A stretch of 43,795 nucleotides of DNA from a virus (taxonomy: Duplodnaviria; Caudoviricetes), in IMG/VR virus record IMGVR_UViG_3300028585_000516, positions 1-43,795 of that record; one strand, given 5' to 3'. Within the stretch, counting starts at the first letter, position 1; every line of letters begins with the position of its first letter. The position numbers were made by a program, and so were the translations under genes. The notes beneath the pieces were generated by a model. The model did no database searches and was not told the origin of the DNA. It saw only the letters and a program-made list of their open reading frames with translations. Of the stretch, positions 23,988-30,866 are shown in pieces.

Positions 23988-25567
23988 TAGCCCTCCACCA
24001 GGCCATCACGGATCGTGACGGGCACAGCGCCGGGCCGCATCTGCACTTCAGCGATATCCAGAGAACCAGCAGCGACCTTCGCAGCGGACTCCGGTGTCGC
24101 ACCAGAGCGCACCAGGATCCCGAACGTGTTCGCACGCTCGGACAGCTTCACCTCATCAACAGGCTCAGCTGAACTTGAAGCGCCACCCTCCAGCAAGCGG
24201 TCCAAGATCGAACCGCCAGCGGCCCGCTCATTCTCGAGAGCAATCGCTTCAGCCGCCTCCTTGGAGATCGGCAGTTCCGCCAGCGTCGAAGCAGACCCCG
24301 GCTGGAAGTTCCCAATCTGCGTCTGCTGGTGAACCATATTCGACTGCTCAGCCATCGAACGAGTGCGCGGATCCTCCCAGCGCGCAGTCAGGCCACGCAG
24401 CTCGGCGTAATCCGCCGGCTCGAAATCGCCGTGAATCAAGCTCAGAGCATTCAGTGCCAAGGCCCGCCGACCGCGCCCCAGGATCGGGTTCTGCGCCTTC
24501 ACATTGCGCACCAAGTCAACTTCTTTGGCCTCAATGGCCTGGGCTGAGGTTGGGTTCGAATCCTGAGCCACGCCGAAGTAGTCGATCGGAATCGAAGATT
24601 CACCCGAGCACGCCGCGCCCAGCAGCCGGAACTGCTCAGAGAACGGCAGAAACGACAACTGCTGGAACGAGTGCACGCCCGCACGCCGCAGCGAGTCGGG
24701 CATATTCTCATCGTCCTCTGGGGTCACATCTGGCAGGCCGTTCACCGCGCCCATCACGACATCCCAGGGGGACATCTCGCGACCAGTTTTCGGATCCGTG
24801 AATGCCTCAACACCAGCCCCGAGGAGCAGAACTCGCGGGTGCATATAGATCTGGGCTGCGACCTCCTGCCGCAGCAACGTTCGAATGCCAGCAAGAGTAA
24901 GGTCCATGATCGGCTGCGTGATCCGCGACCGACCAAACGGCTTACCCAGCGTCGCGCCATGCACATGCACCGCGCACTGAACCCGGCGGGTGCCTGTCCG
25001 CGCCTCATTGACCTTGATCCAGCGGCCATCAGCCGCACGAATGCAAGACACCACCCGATACGGGAGATAGAGATTGAACTCGGACCGCCCCGTGGTCTCC
25101 AGCGCCGCAGTAACTTCACCGGTTCGAGGGTTCAGCTCCGCAGTAGCAGTCCTCGCCGTACGCGCAGAGAAGACCACCAGCGGCTCCCCCGCCAGCACAT
25201 CGCCCGGCGTGGAGAACACGAACGAGCAACCCAGCTCATCCGCCGCTTCAATTACCTGCGGCTCACGAGACGCATAGTCGTTGTCCTCGAATACCGACTC
25301 AATATCTTCAAGAAGCGATGTCGGAGTGCGAGTACTAAACCCAGTGGGCACCTGACGGGCAGCAAACGCCGTGACCGCCTTCTTCGGCCACGACAACATC
25401 GTCATGAACCGGTCCATCCCAGGAGGGATCTCCACACCCAGATGCCGGAGCTTCACATCAGACTCCGAGTAATCCACCCGCAGCGTGTTCCGCTTCGTTC
25501 GGGCATGAATCACCTGGAACATGCGAGAAGCGAGAGTCGCCTCATCCTCAGTCAGATAATCAACCAT
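23987..25567 (-). CDS. Portal protein
   Basis: WP.KAV, PFGRSRIT, NP.SA.AI motifs; follows terminase. Confidence 0.92.
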   Translation of the reverse strand: MVDYLTEDEATLASRMFQVIHARTKRNTLRVDYSESDVKLRHLGVEIPPGMDRFMTMLSWPKKAVTAFAARQVPTGFSTRTPTSLLEDIESVFEDNDYASREPQVIEAADELGCSFVFSTPGDVLAGEPLVVFSARTARTATAELNPRTGEVTAALETTGRSEFNLYLPYRVVSCIRAADGRWIKVNEARTGTRRVQCAVHVHGATLGKPFGRSRITQPIMDLTLAGIRTLLRQEVAAQIYMHPRVLLLGAGVEAFTDPKTGREMSPWDVVMGAVNGLPDVTPEDDENMPDSLRRAGVHSFQQLSFLPFSEQFRLLGAACSGESSIPIDYFGVAQDSNPTSAQAIEAKEVDLVRNVKAQNPILGRGRRALALNALSLIHGDFEPADYAELRGLTARWEDPRTRSMAEQSNMVHQQTQIGNFQPGSASTLAELPISKEAAEAIALENERAAGGSILDRLLEGGASSSAEPVDEVKLSERANTFGILVRSGATPESAAKVAAGSLDIAEVQMRPGAVPVTIRDGLVEG

Positions 25568-27063
25568 CAGCGACCCCCTCTCCTTGCCGGTACGCGACCA
25601 TGCGACGCACGGCCTGACGCTCTACTAGATTTCGACGCGCCCGGATTACGTTTCGTTGTCACAGCGCCCCAATGGGCAAGAGTGGCCGCCTCGAGCAGCG
25701 TCACCGTGAACCCATCCGGGGCCTTCCAACCGAAACCACCCTGGGTGCCGATGGGGCGTCGCAGTGCCACCGATACCTGCTCACTCAGAGCCGCATCGGC
25801 ACAGTGAGAAAGGGACGCATCAGTGACCGCCTGCTTGAACATGGCATGAGCCGTAGTGACCTCATCAAGCTTCGGCACAAGGATCAGTTTCGGGTTGCGG
25901 ACACCAGCCGTGTTCAGATCATTGACCAGCGCACCAGTCCCCGACTTGCCGTCAATGACGATCTGCGCGGCGCCCTTCGAGCGCTCCTGAAGCCACTCGA
26001 CCAACCACGTCGTTCCCTCGCTCATCGACACGTGCCGGACACCCGCAACATGCACAGGACCCTGCGCCGGGCGCACCGCAACAGCCAAAGCCACCTGGGA
26101 CCCATCCGCCGAGAACTTCACGCCATACACGGTGCGACCCTCCGAAGGAATCGTCTCCGGGCTGATCGCCAAATTCCCCCAACGCTTCACGTCAAGCACC
26201 TGCTTCTCGGCGCTCTCCTCATCCCACACACCAAGGCCCTCACGGACAAACGACTCAGGCGTCATCTTCTTCTTCATGCGAAGAATCGCGGTCCTAGACG
26301 TTCGATGCGGGAACGACGGATTCGCCTTAGCAAGCTGCTCCCAGTCATCAGGATCAGCATCATCCTCAGCGCCCAGCTCCACATACAGTGCGTCCTTCTC
26401 CTCACCGGAGAGCGCCTGCCTGCGTGCCTGACTGAAAACCTCAGACGGATCAACCGGCTTCGGAGGTGTACCGATCATCACGACCAGGGCATTCTCAACA
26501 CTGTTCGTCGCCGGCAACATGTCATCAATCGCCCGGTCAGTCAGGATCTGCGCCTCATCGAAAACCGCGATGCCAACCTTCGTGAAACCACGCCCGAAAC
26601 CCTGCTCACGAGCTCCGAACATGATCCGAGAACCGTTCCGAAACCGGATCGACTGCTGCCCCGCGCCATTCGTCGGCTCATCCATGTAAGGGGCAATCTT
26701 CGGATTAGCAGACATGCCCTTCATGTCATCGAACGTCTCGTCAGCCGTTCTCGACCGATGCGCAGTCCACAACACCGTCAAGCCCGGGAACAAGATGCAC
26801 AGCGCAAAAATGATGTGCCCGATCGTGAACGTCTTACCAACCTGGCGAGGAATCGACCACGTGATGCCGCCAATCGCAGCCGCATACAAGCCATCCGCAC
26901 GCTTCGCCAACGTCAACTGACCGATGCCGTCCTGCCAGCGGTCAAAAGTGACACCCAGATCCGAGCACTTATCGCGCACCGCCGGCCACCCCGTGGAAAC
27001 AATGCCCTCCGGGATCACTAGGTGCTTGGCGACCTCAGACAGCCTCGGGCCGGAATTGCTCAT
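25567..27063 (-). CDS. terL: Terminase large subunit
   Basis: PRQVGKT Walker A, VFDEAQ Walker B, GTPP, ANPS motifs. Confidence 0.95.
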   Translation of the reverse strand: MSNSGPRLSEVAKHLVIPEGIVSTGWPAVRDKCSDLGVTFDRWQDGIGQLTLAKRADGLYAAAIGGITWSIPRQVGKTFTIGHIIFALCILFPGLTVLWTAHRSRTADETFDDMKGMSANPKIAPYMDEPTNGAGQQSIRFRNGSRIMFGAREQGFGRGFTKVGIAVFDEAQILTDRAIDDMLPATNSVENALVVMIGTPPKPVDPSEVFSQARRQALSGEEKDALYVELGAEDDADPDDWEQLAKANPSFPHRTSRTAILRMKKKMTPESFVREGLGVWDEESAEKQVLDVKRWGNLAISPETIPSEGRTVYGVKFSADGSQVALAVAVRPAQGPVHVAGVRHVSMSEGTTWLVEWLQERSKGAAQIVIDGKSGTGALVNDLNTAGVRNPKLILVPKLDEVTTAHAMFKQAVTDASLSHCADAALSEQVSVALRRPIGTQGGFGWKAPDGFTVTLLEAATLAHWGAVTTKRNPGASKSSRASGRASHGRVPARRGGR

Positions 27064-27325
27064 CGCTGGAGACTTCACTTTCGTGTGCCTCCTCAGCCCA
27101 CTGCTTCCGCAGTGCCTCGATCTCCTTGCTGACCTCACTCAGACGCTTCGTCAAGGCGGCGAGATCTCGGGCTGACGTATTTTCGTCGTCCACGCGACTA
27201 GCAATGACCTTGCGCATCTGCAGCAACTCATCCAGTCGAGTACCGAACTCGATAGCGTCCGAAACCGAAGCAACCTTGCGCAAAGGCTTATCGTCAGGAC
27301 CAACAGCGGTGAGCTTCGTTGCCAT
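27035..27325 (-). CDS. terS: Terminase small subunit
   Basis: ARDLAALTKRL motif; overlaps terL start; RBS GGAGG. Confidence 0.85.
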   Translation of the reverse strand: MATKLTAVGPDDKPLRKVASVSDAIEFGTRLDELLQMRKVIASRVDDENTSARDLAALTKRLSEVSKEIEALRKQWAEEAHESEVSSDEQFRPEAV

Positions 27326-27463
27326 TTCGCCGCCCCCTCCTGTGGAAAAACCTGTGAATAGATATGCTCATTGCCTCTGGGAAAGGCGCGGGCGCGGGTG
27401 GGAGGGGGTCCCCCATCCCGGTGCTGTGAGTTTTCTGTGCGTTACCTGGACGCGGACGCGGTT

Positions 27464-27790
27464 TCACCACTGTTCGGCGTGTTCGGTCCATCCTGGTAGC
27501 GCGTTGTCAAGTGTTTTGCGTGGCCATTTGGCTGTTTTCGCGCCGAGTGATTGGTTGCATCGTCGGCAGCATGTGCGCAGGTTGGTGAAGGCGTCTGTGC
27601 CTCCGTGTGCGACTGGCACGATGTGGTCGACTTCTGCGCTGTTGCGCCGTCCTGCGTTGGTGTAGTCGAGCTTTATGCCGCATTCGGGGCAGTTGGTGAC
27701 GCCGTCGCGTTGGTCGCGCCGCAGGACCTTGACGCGCAGGTTCTTCCACTTGGTTGTTGCGGTGCGCGGCGTTGGTTTGCGTGGCGGCAC
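27464..27790 (-). CDS. Packaging-associated HNH endonuclease
   Basis: CPEC...EVDHIVP...GG....NL..CCRRCN; directly upstream of terS. Confidence 0.9.
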   Translation of the reverse strand: MPPRKPTPRTATTKWKNLRVKVLRRDQRDGVTNCPECGIKLDYTNAGRRNSAEVDHIVPVAHGGTDAFTNLRTCCRRCNQSLGAKTAKWPRKTLDNALPGWTEHAEQW

Positions 27791-27954
27791 AGTGTCACCT
27801 CGTGTGCATGTGTGTCGCCCAGCCGTGGGGAGCGTGGCTCGACCCGATCCGGCTGGGCGACGGTTGGCGCGTTGCCTCTTCGTCCAGGCTTCCCGGCGCG
27901 TGGCTTCTGGGTTGGCTTGGGGGTTGTGGGGCTGGGCGCGTGGTTGGTGGGGTT

Positions 27955-28167
27955 TTAGTCGGTGTGGGTCCAGTCGTGCGGGAGGGTTGCGTCTGGGGTC
28001 CAGTGGGTGGGGCTGCTTGTGGTGGGGGCGTTACTCCCGGGGAGGACTCTCGGGGCTCCGTTGGTCACGGTGGCGGGGGCGTTGACGACTGTGGGGACCG
28101 TGACCGCGGGGTGCACTACGGACGCGCACTGGGGGCACCCGGGTTCCGTGCAGGGGTTATTCGCCAT
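27955..28167 (-). CDS. Hypothetical protein (N-terminal Cys cluster)
   Basis: C...GC..C; overlaps the upstream stop. Confidence 0.55.
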   Translation of the reverse strand: MANNPCTEPGCPQCASVVHPAVTVPTVVNAPATVTNGAPRVLPGSNAPTTSSPTHWTPDATLPHDWTHTD

Positions 28168-28351
28168 CTTCTTCGTCCCACTCGGGAGACATGATCGTCA
28201 CTTTCGCCATTTCCAACATTCCTAGGAGGATCATCTTGTCCTCCTGCCCCTTGTGGCTCACGCCGTGGGTTGGGTGGCCTTCGCTGTCGAGGCTGTACAC
28301 GATGGTGAGTTCCGCTATCGGCATCGCATTCAGGGCGTCGTGGTCGGCCAT
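28157..28351 (-). CDS. Hypothetical protein
   Basis: RBS AAGGAGG. Confidence 0.75.
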   Translation of the reverse strand: MADHDALNAMPIAELTIVYSLDSEGHPTHGVSHKGQEDKMILLGMLEMAKVTIMSPEWDEEDGE

Positions 28352-28434
28352 GTCCAGCCTCCTTGGGTGTCTTCCGGGCTGTACCTATCGGCTTGGTCCG
28401 GGCTTCCGCGTGGGTCTGGGTTGGTTCGGGTGGG

Positions 28435-28866
28435 TCAGGGTTGCGGCTGGAGTAGCAGGCCGAGTCGGTGTAGTCCGTCGTTAACCTCGGAGGTGATGTC
28501 TCCCACCAGGTAGGCGAGGGGTTCGTGGTCGCCTCGGAGGTGGTGGCGTGCTCTGCTGTCCCAGCTCCTCACGCAGTCCATGAAGTAGAACGCTGCGGCT
28601 GCATGGGTTGCTTCGTGTGCGACTATGTGGGCTGTGAGCTGCCCGATCCATAAGCGCATGACGACGATGGGCGCCTGTTCTGGTTGGGGCCATTGGTAGC
28701 TTTGCTGGATATCCAGTGCGCCGCCAATGGTGACTCCATGCGGGGGTTCTTCTCCGCGTGCATTCTTGACCGCTTCGGCCATCTCGTGCTGGTGCTGGTA
28801 GATGTGCACGAATACCTGGCGGCGGATGCCGGTTGCTGTGGTGGCGACTCGGAAGCGTGCCAGCAT
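28435..28866 (-). CDS. HExxH-containing putative zincin-like protein
   Basis: AHEATHAA plus downstream HEPLAY; RBS GAGGAGG. Confidence 0.65.
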   Translation of the reverse strand: MLARFRVATTATGIRRQVFVHIYQHQHEMAEAVKNARGEEPPHGVTIGGALDIQQSYQWPQPEQAPIVVMRLWIGQLTAHIVAHEATHAAAAFYFMDCVRSWDSRARHHLRGDHEPLAYLVGDITSEVNDGLHRLGLLLQPQP

Positions 28867-28876
28867 CGGTGCCTCC

Positions 28877-29029
28877 TCAGTCGGTGTACGGGCAGCCGTC
28901 GCGTGTGGGGTTGTCTTCGTTGTAGTGTGTCGCGAGCTGTTGTGTCGGTTTCACTTCACGCACGTAGCAGCCGCATGATGATCCGGGGTAGCCGTGTGCG
29001 CAGAGTAGTTCGGCCGGGCATTGCTTCAT
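28877..29029 (-). CDS. 50-aa Cys-rich protein (below the ORF-track cutoff)
   Basis: RBS GGAGG; MKQCPAELLCAHGYPGSSCGC...GCPYTD; fills the gap. Confidence 0.65.
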   Translation of the reverse strand: MKQCPAELLCAHGYPGSSCGCYVREVKPTQQLATHYNEDNPTRDGCPYTD

Positions 29030-29040
29030 GGCCGGCCTCC

Positions 29041-29328
29041 CTAGAAGGTGAAGCTAGGTGACTGCTGTGCTACTGCATCTCTACTTGCGCGTGCGCCCTG
29101 GTCTGCGATTGCTTCGAGGTTCGCCAGGTCTACTGCTCCCCGGATGGATGCCTCGACTTCTGGGGAGATGGTTGGCCTTGGCTTGAAGTGGTAGGCGAAG
29201 TTGGACTCGATGGAGAACCGTGCAAGTTCTGCAAGCGTGTGCACTTGCTCTTCCCTCGCGGCCTTCCTGAGTTCTTCATTGATCTCGATGGAGCGTCGGC
29301 CTATCAGCTCAGCGAATGTCTCAGCCAT
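29041..29328 (-). CDS. Hypothetical protein
   Basis: RBS AGGAGGAG. Confidence 0.7.
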   Translation of the reverse strand: MAETFAELIGRRSIEINEELRKAAREEQVHTLAELARFSIESNFAYHFKPRPTISPEVEASIRGAVDLANLEAIADQGARASRDAVAQQSPSFTF

Positions 29329-29401
29329 GCCGCTCCTCCTGTTGGTGTGCGGCCCTCAGCCACGGTAAACCAGGGTGGGTTAGAGATGAGCCGAGGGCCA
29401 G

Positions 29402-29451
29402 TGCGCTTCCGGGGAACGATCCCGGCACCCATGAGGTGGACCTTCAAGCGC
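29402..29451 (-). ncRNA. Miniature tRNA-like element (acceptor stem plus T-arm)
   Basis: GCGCTT/AAGCGC stem contiguous with CCGGG-ATCGTTC-CCCGG arm; small CACC/GGTG hairpin inside. Confidence 0.4.
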
Positions 29452-29459
29452 GATTCCTG

Positions 29460-29741
29460 CTACCTGTTGAACAGGTCTGATCCTTCTGGCATTGCTTCGC
29501 GGTCGCGCCAAGATTCACCGGGCAGGTTATCGGTGCCCTGGGTGTATGCCTGACGCTTGGCCCGCTTGAGAGTATGGATGAGCTTGTCGATGTCTTCGAC
29601 ACTCATGTCTACTCGTGCGGCGTCTCCGGTGTCGGACCAGCCCTCCGGGAAGATGCTGAGCTGAACCCAGCCAATCTTGTTCCATCCGACGACTGCTTGC
29701 TGCCCGGATGCGTCTGGGTGGTTGATCTTTTCGTGTGGCAT
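29460..29741 (-). CDS. Hypothetical protein
   Basis: MPHEKINHPD..., RBS AAAGGTGG. Confidence 0.7.
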   Translation of the reverse strand: MPHEKINHPDASGQQAVVGWNKIGWVQLSIFPEGWSDTGDAARVDMSVEDIDKLIHTLKRAKRQAYTQGTDNLPGESWRDREAMPEGSDLFNR

Positions 29742-29815
29742 AACGCCACCTTTCTGGTCTACTCGGACCACAGCAATGGTTCGAGTTGGATTGTTGACTG
29801 CTCTGAAGTACAGCG

Positions 29816-29903
29816 TCTCCCAGGCCGGAGTCGAACCGGCTTCATGCCCAGCTGCCGTAAGGCGCATGTTGTGTGCTGGTGCACTCCGAGTGCTATCTGA
29901 GAG
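29816..29903 (-). ncRNA. tRNA-like RNA with a non-canonical anticodon arm
   Basis: 7-bp CTCTCAG/CTGGGAG stem, GCAC/GTGC D-like arm, CCAGC/GCTGG arm, canonical GCCGG-TTCGACT-CCGGC T-arm. Confidence 0.55.
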
Positions 29904-29982
29904 TTGCGGGGGTGCCCGACGTGGCGGTGTGAGTCGTCAGCGGCGGGCGCGTCCCCACAGACGCATGCCCCGAGATGGGCAC

Positions 29983-30017
29983 AAAAATAGGGCCGGGAGC
30001 AATGCTCCTCAGCCCTT
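29983..30017 (-). terminator. Terminator just downstream of the late promoter
   Basis: GC stem followed by TATTTTT. Confidence 0.7.
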
Positions 30018-30042
30018 CGATACTTCAACCAACCTACGGTCT

Positions 30043-30071
30043 AGCATAGGTCACTTGCCCGCGATTGTCTA
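30043..30071 (-). promoter_or_regulatory. Putative late promoter
   Basis: TAGACA-N17-TATGCT on the minus strand. Confidence 0.6.
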
Positions 30072-30866
30072 TGCGGCTTTCTCGCGCAGTCCCCCGCGTC
30101 GTTTCTTGACCTTCTCGCGGGCTTCGAGGACTTGCGCGGGTGAATACAGGTGGACACGATCGGCAATCCTGCAACGTGCGGCTTGCAGGTCTCCGTCCTT
30201 GGCCCATCGTCGGGCTGACCTGGGGTCGACCATAATCTTGGCTTTCCTGAGTAGCTTGACGATTTCGGATAACGGCGCTTCGATTCCCGTGGCCTGGGCT
30301 ACGGCTTGGGCCTGTACATCTTCAACGATGTAGGTGGCTCCACACGTCCTGCATCTAGCCTCTGTGTCGCCGTCTCGGGCTTTAATCATCTCGGGGCACC
30401 TCTGTCCTTCAATGACGGTTCCGCATCGTCCGAGCAGGATTATGTTGGGTGGCAGGTCGATGGCGACGAGCAGGTAGCGGGTAGCTTCTGATAGCTCCCG
30501 GAGCATCTCTCCGGCGTCGTCGCGTTTCTTGATGAGGTCGACGCTGAGTCGCAGGTATGTGAGCGGTTCGAGACCGCGCACGTGGGGGTCGGTGTCGTCT
30601 TCGAGGATGACCCGCGCCCATTGGTGGATAGCTTCCACCAGTGTGCGTTTCCGCATACTGGCTTCGAGGTTGAGTGGCGCTGCTGACCCGGCGGCTGGGT
30701 CGTTGGCGCCTGCTCCCCCGCCTAGCTGGTCGAGTTTGGCGATGGTGTCGTCGGCGTCTTCGAGGGTGCCTGGCAGGTCGGCAAGGAGGCGGCGCAGGTC
30801 GGCCTCGTGTTTGGCACAGAGGGTGATTCCGTCGGCGGTTGGGGCGTGGCAGTGGGTGCAGGTCAT
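30069..30866 (-). CDS. Zn-finger plus HTH DNA-binding protein (putative late regulator)
   Basis: CxxC motifs, C-terminal ARRWAKDG.L MerR-like HTH; last early gene. Confidence 0.75.
   Translation of the reverse strand: MTCTHCHAPTADGITLCAKHEADLRRLLADLPGTLEDADDTIAKLDQLGGGAGANDPAAGSAAPLNLEASMRKRTLVEAIHQWARVILEDDTDPHVRGLEPLTYLRLSVDLIKKRDDAGEMLRELSEATRYLLVAIDLPPNIILLGRCGTVIEGQRCPEMIKARDGDTEARCRTCGATYIVEDVQAQAVAQATGIEAPLSEIVKLLRKAKIMVDPRSARRWAKDGDLQAARCRIADRVHLYSPAQVLEAREKVKKRRGGLREKAA

Follow-up and report, generated by a model that had tools for sequence, protein, structure and literature searches.

A tRNA-shaped sequence with an intact T-arm and a replaced anticodon loop, here termed element 1, lies ahead of the packaging genes of a provirus and raises the question of whether it is a working tRNA, the remains of one, or an RNA that serves through its shape. 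It was analysed within the window, by which we mean the whole 43,795-nt stretch of DNA, a 43.8-kb provirus record with an integrase, siphovirus-type head and tail genes, and a repressor. The structural genes are on the minus strand, the terminase is nearest to those of Arthrobacter, Propionibacterium, and Rothia phages, and DNA of the window was found in leaf-litter metagenomes. Feature coordinates are collected in Table 1; an initial annotation of element 1 had given no strand, and the element was placed on the minus strand.

Structure of element 1 and its surroundings

Element 1 folded alone as a cloverleaf in both the MFE and the centroid structure, with a stability (z -2.1) that was equalled by 4 of 200 shuffles. 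When the flanks were included, all 21 stem pairs were intact at probabilities of 0.73-0.98: the seven acceptor pairs reached 0.87-0.98, the five of the T-stem 0.88-0.89, the five at the anticodon position 0.75, and the four of the D-stem ~0.73. The T-loop agreed with the consensus at 7/7 positions. The 7-bp acceptor stem, short D arm, and textbook T-arm of the initial annotation were thus recovered, as was its CCAGC/GCTGG stem at the anticodon position around about 22 nt, the loop being exactly 22 nt long. The GCC-TTAC-GGC sub-hairpin that it had placed within this loop is present in the centroid but is marginal, having only 3 bp and giving way in the MFE to another 3-bp pairing; the 5' part of the loop is predicted to be unpaired. 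The variable region is 7 nt long and unpaired, and the 3' end reads A73-C74-G75 (C74 at 29815), so that CCA is not encoded, as had been noted. Across both strands of 300 dinucleotide-shuffled windows no foldable T-arm with a stacked acceptor arose, and the cloverleaf is real.

Table 1. Coordinates of element 1, its parts, and neighbouring features in the window
Feature	Position	Strand	Description
HTH protein P0001 (phrog_908)	30069..30866	minus	E 7e-34
Predicted SigA/sigma70-type promoter	30043..30071	minus	overlaps the stop of the HTH gene; start probably near 30036
Predicted hairpin	29905..29959	minus	immediately 5' of element 1; folded with flanks
Element 1	29816..29903	minus	read from 29903 to 29816; 88 nt including discriminator A at 29816
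Acceptor stem, 5' strand	29897..29903	minus	7/7 pairs with 29817-29823 in the fold
Short D arm	29881..29893	minus	4-bp stem, 5-nt loop; from sequence, fold, and covariance-model alignment
Anticodon-position arm	29848..29879	minus	5-bp stem around 22-nt loop (29853-29874)
Canonical T arm	29824..29840	minus	5-bp stem, 7/7 consensus loop
P0002, 93-aa ORF	29460..29741	minus	between elements 1 and 2
Element 2, tRNA-like	29401..29451	minus	6-bp acceptor, one hairpin, T-like arm, ends A-C-T
HNH endonuclease, terminase small and large subunits	25567..27790	minus	first packaging genes; same strand as element 1

With a tRNA covariance model trained on 36 phage tRNAs, element 1 was the top match of the window (23.8 bits, E 6.6e-5; runner-up 13.4), while true tRNAs in related loci mostly scored 50-83 bits on the same model, so the score of an ordinary tRNA, which would have spoken against the initial annotation, was not obtained. 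ARAGORN called 0 genes on element 1, in line with its expectation of a pseudogene or no call, and Rfam returned 0 matches at the gathering threshold and 0 at E<=10 within 28900-30200. Of the features of a canonical tRNA, element 1 has the 7-bp acceptor stacked on a 5-bp T-stem with a consensus T-loop; it departs from the canonical D-arm (A14, R15, G18-G19, A21), from the 7-nt anticodon loop with Y32-U33 and R37, and from the expected ARAGORN/RF00005 call. The D arm retains GG and the terminal A, lacks equivalents of A14/G15, and is reached by a connector of 3 nt rather than 2. Because the 22-nt loop, which starts A-C-A, has no Y32-U33-anticodon-R37 register and A14/G15 are absent, element 1 cannot decode in the ordinary way, which upholds and sharpens the earlier judgement that it was unlikely to do so.

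Other known classes were compared in turn. A tmRNA assignment was rejected on account of a C3-G70 pair in place of G3-U70, the 88-nt length, and the lack of an ARAGORN call, and a YrlA Y RNA on account of arms in ordinary rather than permuted order; no Ro60 was found beside element 1 in a subset of neighbouring ORFs searched against PHROGs (37 ORFs) or Pfam (18 ORFs). An allo-tRNA was rejected since element 1 has a 7/5 branch with its short unpaired variable region, as opposed to 8/4 or 9/3 with a long variable arm, and the C4/CI class since no Rfam C4-type match was found at E<=10. The fold does agree with that of t-elements and mascRNA, being tRNA-like with a T-arm motif and no conserved anticodon. 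Element 1 is probably a shape-only tRNA mimic, as are t-elements, mascRNA, and YrlA, and falls outside the tRNA, C4, YrlA, allo-tRNA, and tmRNA classes tested.

Element 1 starts 166 nt past the stop codon of P0001 and ~130 nt downstream of the predicted promoter. P0001 is a putative late-gene regulator, a role suggested by its position; its C-terminus has a weak match to PDB 6AMK/6AMA (E 0.04-0.09), and MerR_1 was present on 21% of one atlas cluster. Downstream of element 1 the order is P0002, element 2, small ORFs, HNH, and terminase, and a search of the minus strand from 27300 to 30300 found no terminator. From this gene order the packaging transcript is presumably late, and the initial reading of a non-decoding tRNA mimic heading the packaging-gene transcript is supported, expression itself being presumed. 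Its grouping of element 1 with the element at 29402 (element 2) as one set is plausible but weaker, as element 2 scored 11.8 bits (E 0.26) with the tRNA covariance model, has a non-consensus T-loop, and changes its fold once the downstream flank is included. The atlas matches of P0002 were all <0.9, and homologs of P0002 (L006-L009) were often near tRNA genes or T-arm hairpins.

Four leaf-litter RNA runs, chosen by this stretch, yielded five contigs, each 151-155 nt long and located between 28947 and 29796; they cover P0002, and none lies on element 1. The contigs are of single-read length and carry no strand or ends. Two of the four runs had no other contig over 25000-35000, which hints weakly at transcription of the leader region apart from the structural genes, as a constitutive lysogen promoter would give. 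A relative contig matches 29912-29981 and 29321-29401 with 243 other letters replacing 29402-29911, and these matching flanks indicate that element 1, P0002, and element 2 were swapped as one cassette ending at the discriminator of element 2.

The slot in related loci and similar RNAs elsewhere

Neither blastn against 50,697 phage records (a single 44-nt chance match), nor an IMG/VR search with its exact T-arm pattern, nor a search of 401 genomes from the G592 family yielded a close homolog of element 1, and for this reason the HTH gene was used to trace the slot. The matches L385 and L386 from the G592 family comprised the upstream hairpin alone and adjoin apparent host genes. The related-loci search found none with P0001 in viral contigs and none with A1 in genomes. 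The actinobacterial HTH loci studied were the best 100 of ~160 overlapping match rows, taken with 2.5 kb on each side, from source searches centred on one Arthrobacter genome and two other genomes.

Strict T-arms in the downstream sense numbered 38, in 28 of these 100 strongest loci, against 1, 0, and 1 in three control regions of ~240 kb each, and ARAGORN made 21 downstream-sense calls against 0 in controls. A similar promoter was predicted behind the HTH gene in 40/100 loci (sense controls 3 and 0, antisense control 10), and a hairpin 5' of the tRNA-like element was frequent in the relatives too. Covariance-model matches sorted by eye comprised 20 elements with a normal anticodon arm (17/100 loci) and 19 in which it was deleted, shortened, or enlarged (18/100 loci); 31 loci had either type and 69 had neither, among them L165, the closest HTH relative. 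The anticodon arm was deleted in L172, short in L198, L173, and L227, and enlarged, as in element 1, in L166, L236, and L231 as well as in L216 from a looser scan; L169 and L175 have large D-loop inserts, and tandem arrays were present in L168, L173, L182, and L242. By an automatic parse 17/19 altered elements end in A73-C74, like element 1. The slot behind the HTH gene is a hotspot for tRNA-shaped elements.

Cultured phages are represented by Sonali (enlarged arm), TripleJ (short form), and Glutamicibacter phage BIM BV-113 (true tRNA-Gln), and members in Gorpy and Aoka were located via similarity to TripleJ and MrSmee. ARAGORN labelled the Sonali element tRNA-Trp and the L236 element tRNA-Leu, and GenBank carried no annotation of these altered RNAs in the regions examined.

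Several further observations were made in these leaders. In L153, L024, L167, L169, L227, L235, L236, and L239, the sequence AACTGAATA and a hairpin behind it, whose loop is often ACATGAG, stand directly 5' of the tRNA-like element; AACTGAATA occurs in 10/100 leaders and 0 controls and is absent from the window leader. In a second motif, 300-750 nt past the HTH gene (L021 3820-3906; also L167, L169, L175, L178, L179, and L186), TTGACGGC pairs with its complement to close a long stem that encloses unpaired ACACAAC or CCCACAC; this motif had no Rfam match in L021 and is possibly an undescribed RNA family. Trp-/Thr-type tRNAs with a normal anticodon arm carry acceptor-stem mismatches that recur between loci (L193 4854-4925, L232 4856-4929, L173 3858-3931, and L194 3375-3447). 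L182 (3732-3805) and L242 (3561-3634) carry an atypical tRNA that may decode Tyr; its anticodon stem is 7 bp long, its loop has GUA, and it shows compensatory changes.

Beyond the slot, a pattern of D-arm and T-loop at long spacing gave 120 matches in IMG/VR, of which 37 were distinct with paired acceptor and T stems; 22 of these were tRNAs with a long variable arm, and the other 15, from loci of 28-72% GC, had an enlarged anticodon arm, so anticodon-enlarged tRNA-shaped RNAs are widespread in viral contigs. For 11 such elements in other phages, no phrog_908 or terminase neighbour was found among 30/52 ORFs in 8 loci. In L289 and L333 (about 1194-1290), an Arg(UCU)-like tRNA with an intron-like hairpin insert of variable length after position 37 lies in tRNA clusters. 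An acceptor-like stem with a T arm was seen at further intergenic sites, namely the right end of Mycobacterium phage LittleCherry (L031, ~730-775) and between primase and polymerase of Arthrobacter phage Soondubu (L029, ~1465-1527). A repeated element of hairpin and T-arm in Stenotrophomonas genomes (L152, L156-L158), present twice within 420 nt in L157, also matched the RNA pattern used in the scan for slot-like elements.

Apparent selection on shape and rival explanations

Whether such elements are held in shape or eroding was examined in 19 pattern-found elements (16 high-GC scan matches and three Arthrobacter loci), nearly all without an ARAGORN call; the RNA-pattern scan itself gave mostly ordinary tRNAs, 94 of its 120 matches having such a call. 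Among eight high-GC elements with flanks, phrog_908 or phrog_1467 lay upstream in three, terminase lay downstream in one more, and four had neither. At the T-stem positions left free by the pattern (the three outer pairs), 56/57 pairs still pair, with 4-6 pair types each; shuffles averaged 30.6 and none of 5000 reached 56, a count that is not a probability as the sequences are related. In four subfamilies, with L145 left out of the count, variable T-stem positions were paired 6/6, five of them with two-sided change; L182/L242, one of the covarying pairs, has a loop of 7 nt and possibly decodes. L169/L175 hold their anticodon-position stem (6/6) by two-sided changes around a 4-nt loop, with D-loop inserts that are divergent and poorly alignable.

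Compared with 371 distinct tRNA top halves, element 1 differs from the closest at 8/32 positions, and its D loop, anticodon loop, connector, and variable region have all been remodelled, yet the stems are intact. In a neutral simulation, 5 substitutions left the whole element intact in 4.6% of trials and 10 substitutions in 0.2%, figures to be read with the caveat that element 1 was noticed because it is intact. Scans that require a T arm leave decayed copies invisible, which biases the intactness argument accordingly; an independent D-arm search gave nine real matches, with the T arm intact in 9/9, the anticodon arm non-canonical in four (one slightly), and acceptor mismatches in four decoding-type copies, which indicates that acceptor stems do erode in the slot. 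The compensatory changes in T-stem and anticodon-position stem within subfamilies make the RNA family look selected for shape, not decoding, and at the family level the random decay that would have told against the initial annotation is replaced by compensation. Selection on element 1 itself would be read across from these relatives in kind, and we regard it as likely that the element is a selected, non-decoding tRNA mimic.

Several accounts of its function or origin compete. As a cis-acting processing signal, the fold would direct RNase P and 3' cleavage, cutting the leader and P0002 message from the packaging transcript and leaving the freed RNA as a by-product. Plant mitochondrial t-elements act exactly so (PMC1920247), elements 1 and 2 flank P0002, the 5/5 contigs downstream of element 1 agree weakly, and the acceptor and T arm that RNase P requires vary least, in contrast to a freely variable interior. 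Such a signal is nevertheless possible rather than probable, since some subfamilies keep D and anticodon-position stems that are needless for cleavage, tandem arrays exceed what punctuation needs, and the 69/100 loci without a listed element imply that the packaging transcript does not require one. We think it unlikely that element 1 is a decaying gene, a former true tRNA whose anticodon was destroyed by insertions and whose remainder has so far escaped erosion: all 21 pairs are intact although four loops were remodelled, and anticodon-less subfamilies recur across separate genomes with two-sided changes. That account does draw on the true tRNAs in the same slot, on acceptor mismatches in several of them, on the lack of a close homolog, and on the fast turnover seen in the relative contig with its 243 other letters.

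The tRNA scaffold might instead display the 22-nt loop as antisense or protein-binding cargo. P1 C4 and P4 CI act by an antisense mechanism. This account, close to the C4/CI-type antisense regulator first suggested for element 1, is improbable: besides the missing Rfam C4-type match, no loop complement of at least 7 nt was found on the same transcript (27000-30040; six 6-mers only), the longest complement anywhere in the genome (9 nt) did not exceed the shuffle median of 10, and the most stable duplex in the phage genome (-25.6 kcal/mol) lay inside the shuffled range of -23 to -31.6. The proposed target search for the loop thus found nothing in the phage beyond shuffle expectation, and the inserts differ among orthologs. 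In favour of cargo are the predicted unpaired 5' part of the loop, its heptamer ACACAAC within 1 kb in the downstream sense in 15/100 loci (controls 4, 1, and 1), similar C/A-rich stretches in the L166 and L216 inserts, and a C4 precursor that is reported to be an RNase P substrate. AACATG and CCTTAC were tried as leader motifs and rejected, with no sense-strand enrichment in leaders. An unusual decoding tRNA, or one with an anticodon-loop intron, is very improbable indeed; bacteria are not known to have the archaeal splicing endonuclease. The cloverleaf with A73 and the Arg-like loops of the unrelated phage loci L289 and L333, with their insert after position 37, speak for it, and against it stand the A-C-A start without Y32-U33, the failure of intron removal after position 37 to yield a 7-nt loop, the silence of ARAGORN, and a score far under most true tRNAs.

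Known systems and a possible decoy role

Among known RNAs, plant mitochondrial t-elements (PMC1920247) and mascRNA (PMC9976931) resemble element 1 in that their fold is tRNA-like and the T arm, but not the anticodon loop, is conserved. Both are handled by tRNA-processing enzymes, and t-elements gain CCA or a partial CCA after cleavage (PMC1920247, PMC9976931). They are, however, eukaryotic or organellar, whereas the slot elements occur in bacteriophages, share their slot with true tRNAs, and have processing that is predicted. The bacterial Y RNA YrlA is a tRNA mimic with T and D arms in actinobacteria and mycobacteriophages, and a YrlA-type RNA of M. smegmatis is cut by RNase P and gains CCA (PMC4201824); YrlA is permuted, with a loop-closed, acceptor-like stem between T and D arms, and lies beside Ro60, while element 1 has the ordinary order and no Rfam match. 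P1/P7 C4 and P4 CI are, like element 1, small structured phage RNAs with an exposed loop, and C4 is reported to be an RNase P substrate; unlike them, element 1 has no model match and no phage target and lies outside an immunity/anti-repressor region.

Allo-tRNAs are irregular cloverleafs of soil bacteria and phages, some translation-inactive and near toxin-antitoxin genes; their acceptor branch is 8/4 or 9/3, and they have a long variable arm as well as an anticodon (PMC5389517), whereas element 1 has a 7/5 branch and no anticodon. Phage tRNAs of the slot, such as the tRNA-Gln of BIM BV-113, share position, orientation, acceptor, and T arm with element 1 and usually have no encoded CCA, but retain an anticodon loop of 7 nt and are able to decode.

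RNA C and RNA D of T4 have tRNA-like ends. They are small, late phage RNAs from the tRNA region (PMC3014915, PMC9697503); T4, however, is a lytic coliphage, and no Rfam match ties them to element 1.

The reading we prefer, tentatively and short of calling it probable, is that element 1 is a decoy for host proteins that recognise the shape of tRNA, a proposal that takes its lead from known tRNA-targeting defence systems. Phage tRNAs and tRNA-targeting defences are engaged in an arms race. The predicted promoter just upstream would likely transcribe element 1, and host tRNA-processing enzymes would likely excise it (RNase P and 3' processing) and add CCA, which is suggested by the A73-C74 ends of the altered elements and by the finding that RNase P needs no more of its substrate than acceptor and T arm (PMC11143913). 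The processed and presumably stable RNA would then act in trans as a decoy for host proteins gripping the acceptor end and elbow of tRNA, most plausibly tRNA-targeting anti-phage toxins; PrrC, for one, senses tRNA features besides the anticodon (PMC3014915). Arms conserved beyond the RNase P minimum, as in L169/L175, indicate a role for the whole shape, and a mimic acting in trans is favoured by these extra arms, by the slot held in common with trans-acting tRNAs, and by a turnover that is fast and patchy. Against a decoy role count the minority of loci in which elements were listed, the missing A14/G15 core contacts, and the report that C+1 is not a favoured RNase P start (PMC11143913); no defence system was linked to element 1 in the analyses run. 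No account of these tRNA-shaped slot RNAs was found in the literature searched, which covered few subscription papers.

In its widest form the decoy proposal, a possibility that we hold with some doubt, is that a fast-swapping RNA slot behind the late promoter of temperate actinobacterial phages holds either true tRNAs or anticodon-free decoys, the latter an undescribed toxin-absorbing counter-defence, with anticodon-enlarged tRNA-shaped RNAs also widespread in other phages. If true, slot RNAs would soak up host toxins that recognise the tRNA acceptor end or elbow. Annotation tools miss or mislabel these RNAs. The proposal would bear on two questions of long standing, namely why phages carry tRNA genes and what role RNA C and D of T4 play. 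A single slot spans a natural series from true tRNA to anticodon-free mimic, and its members in the cultured phages TripleJ, Gorpy, Aoka, and Sonali on Arthrobacter globiformis make decoding versus shape-only function directly testable.
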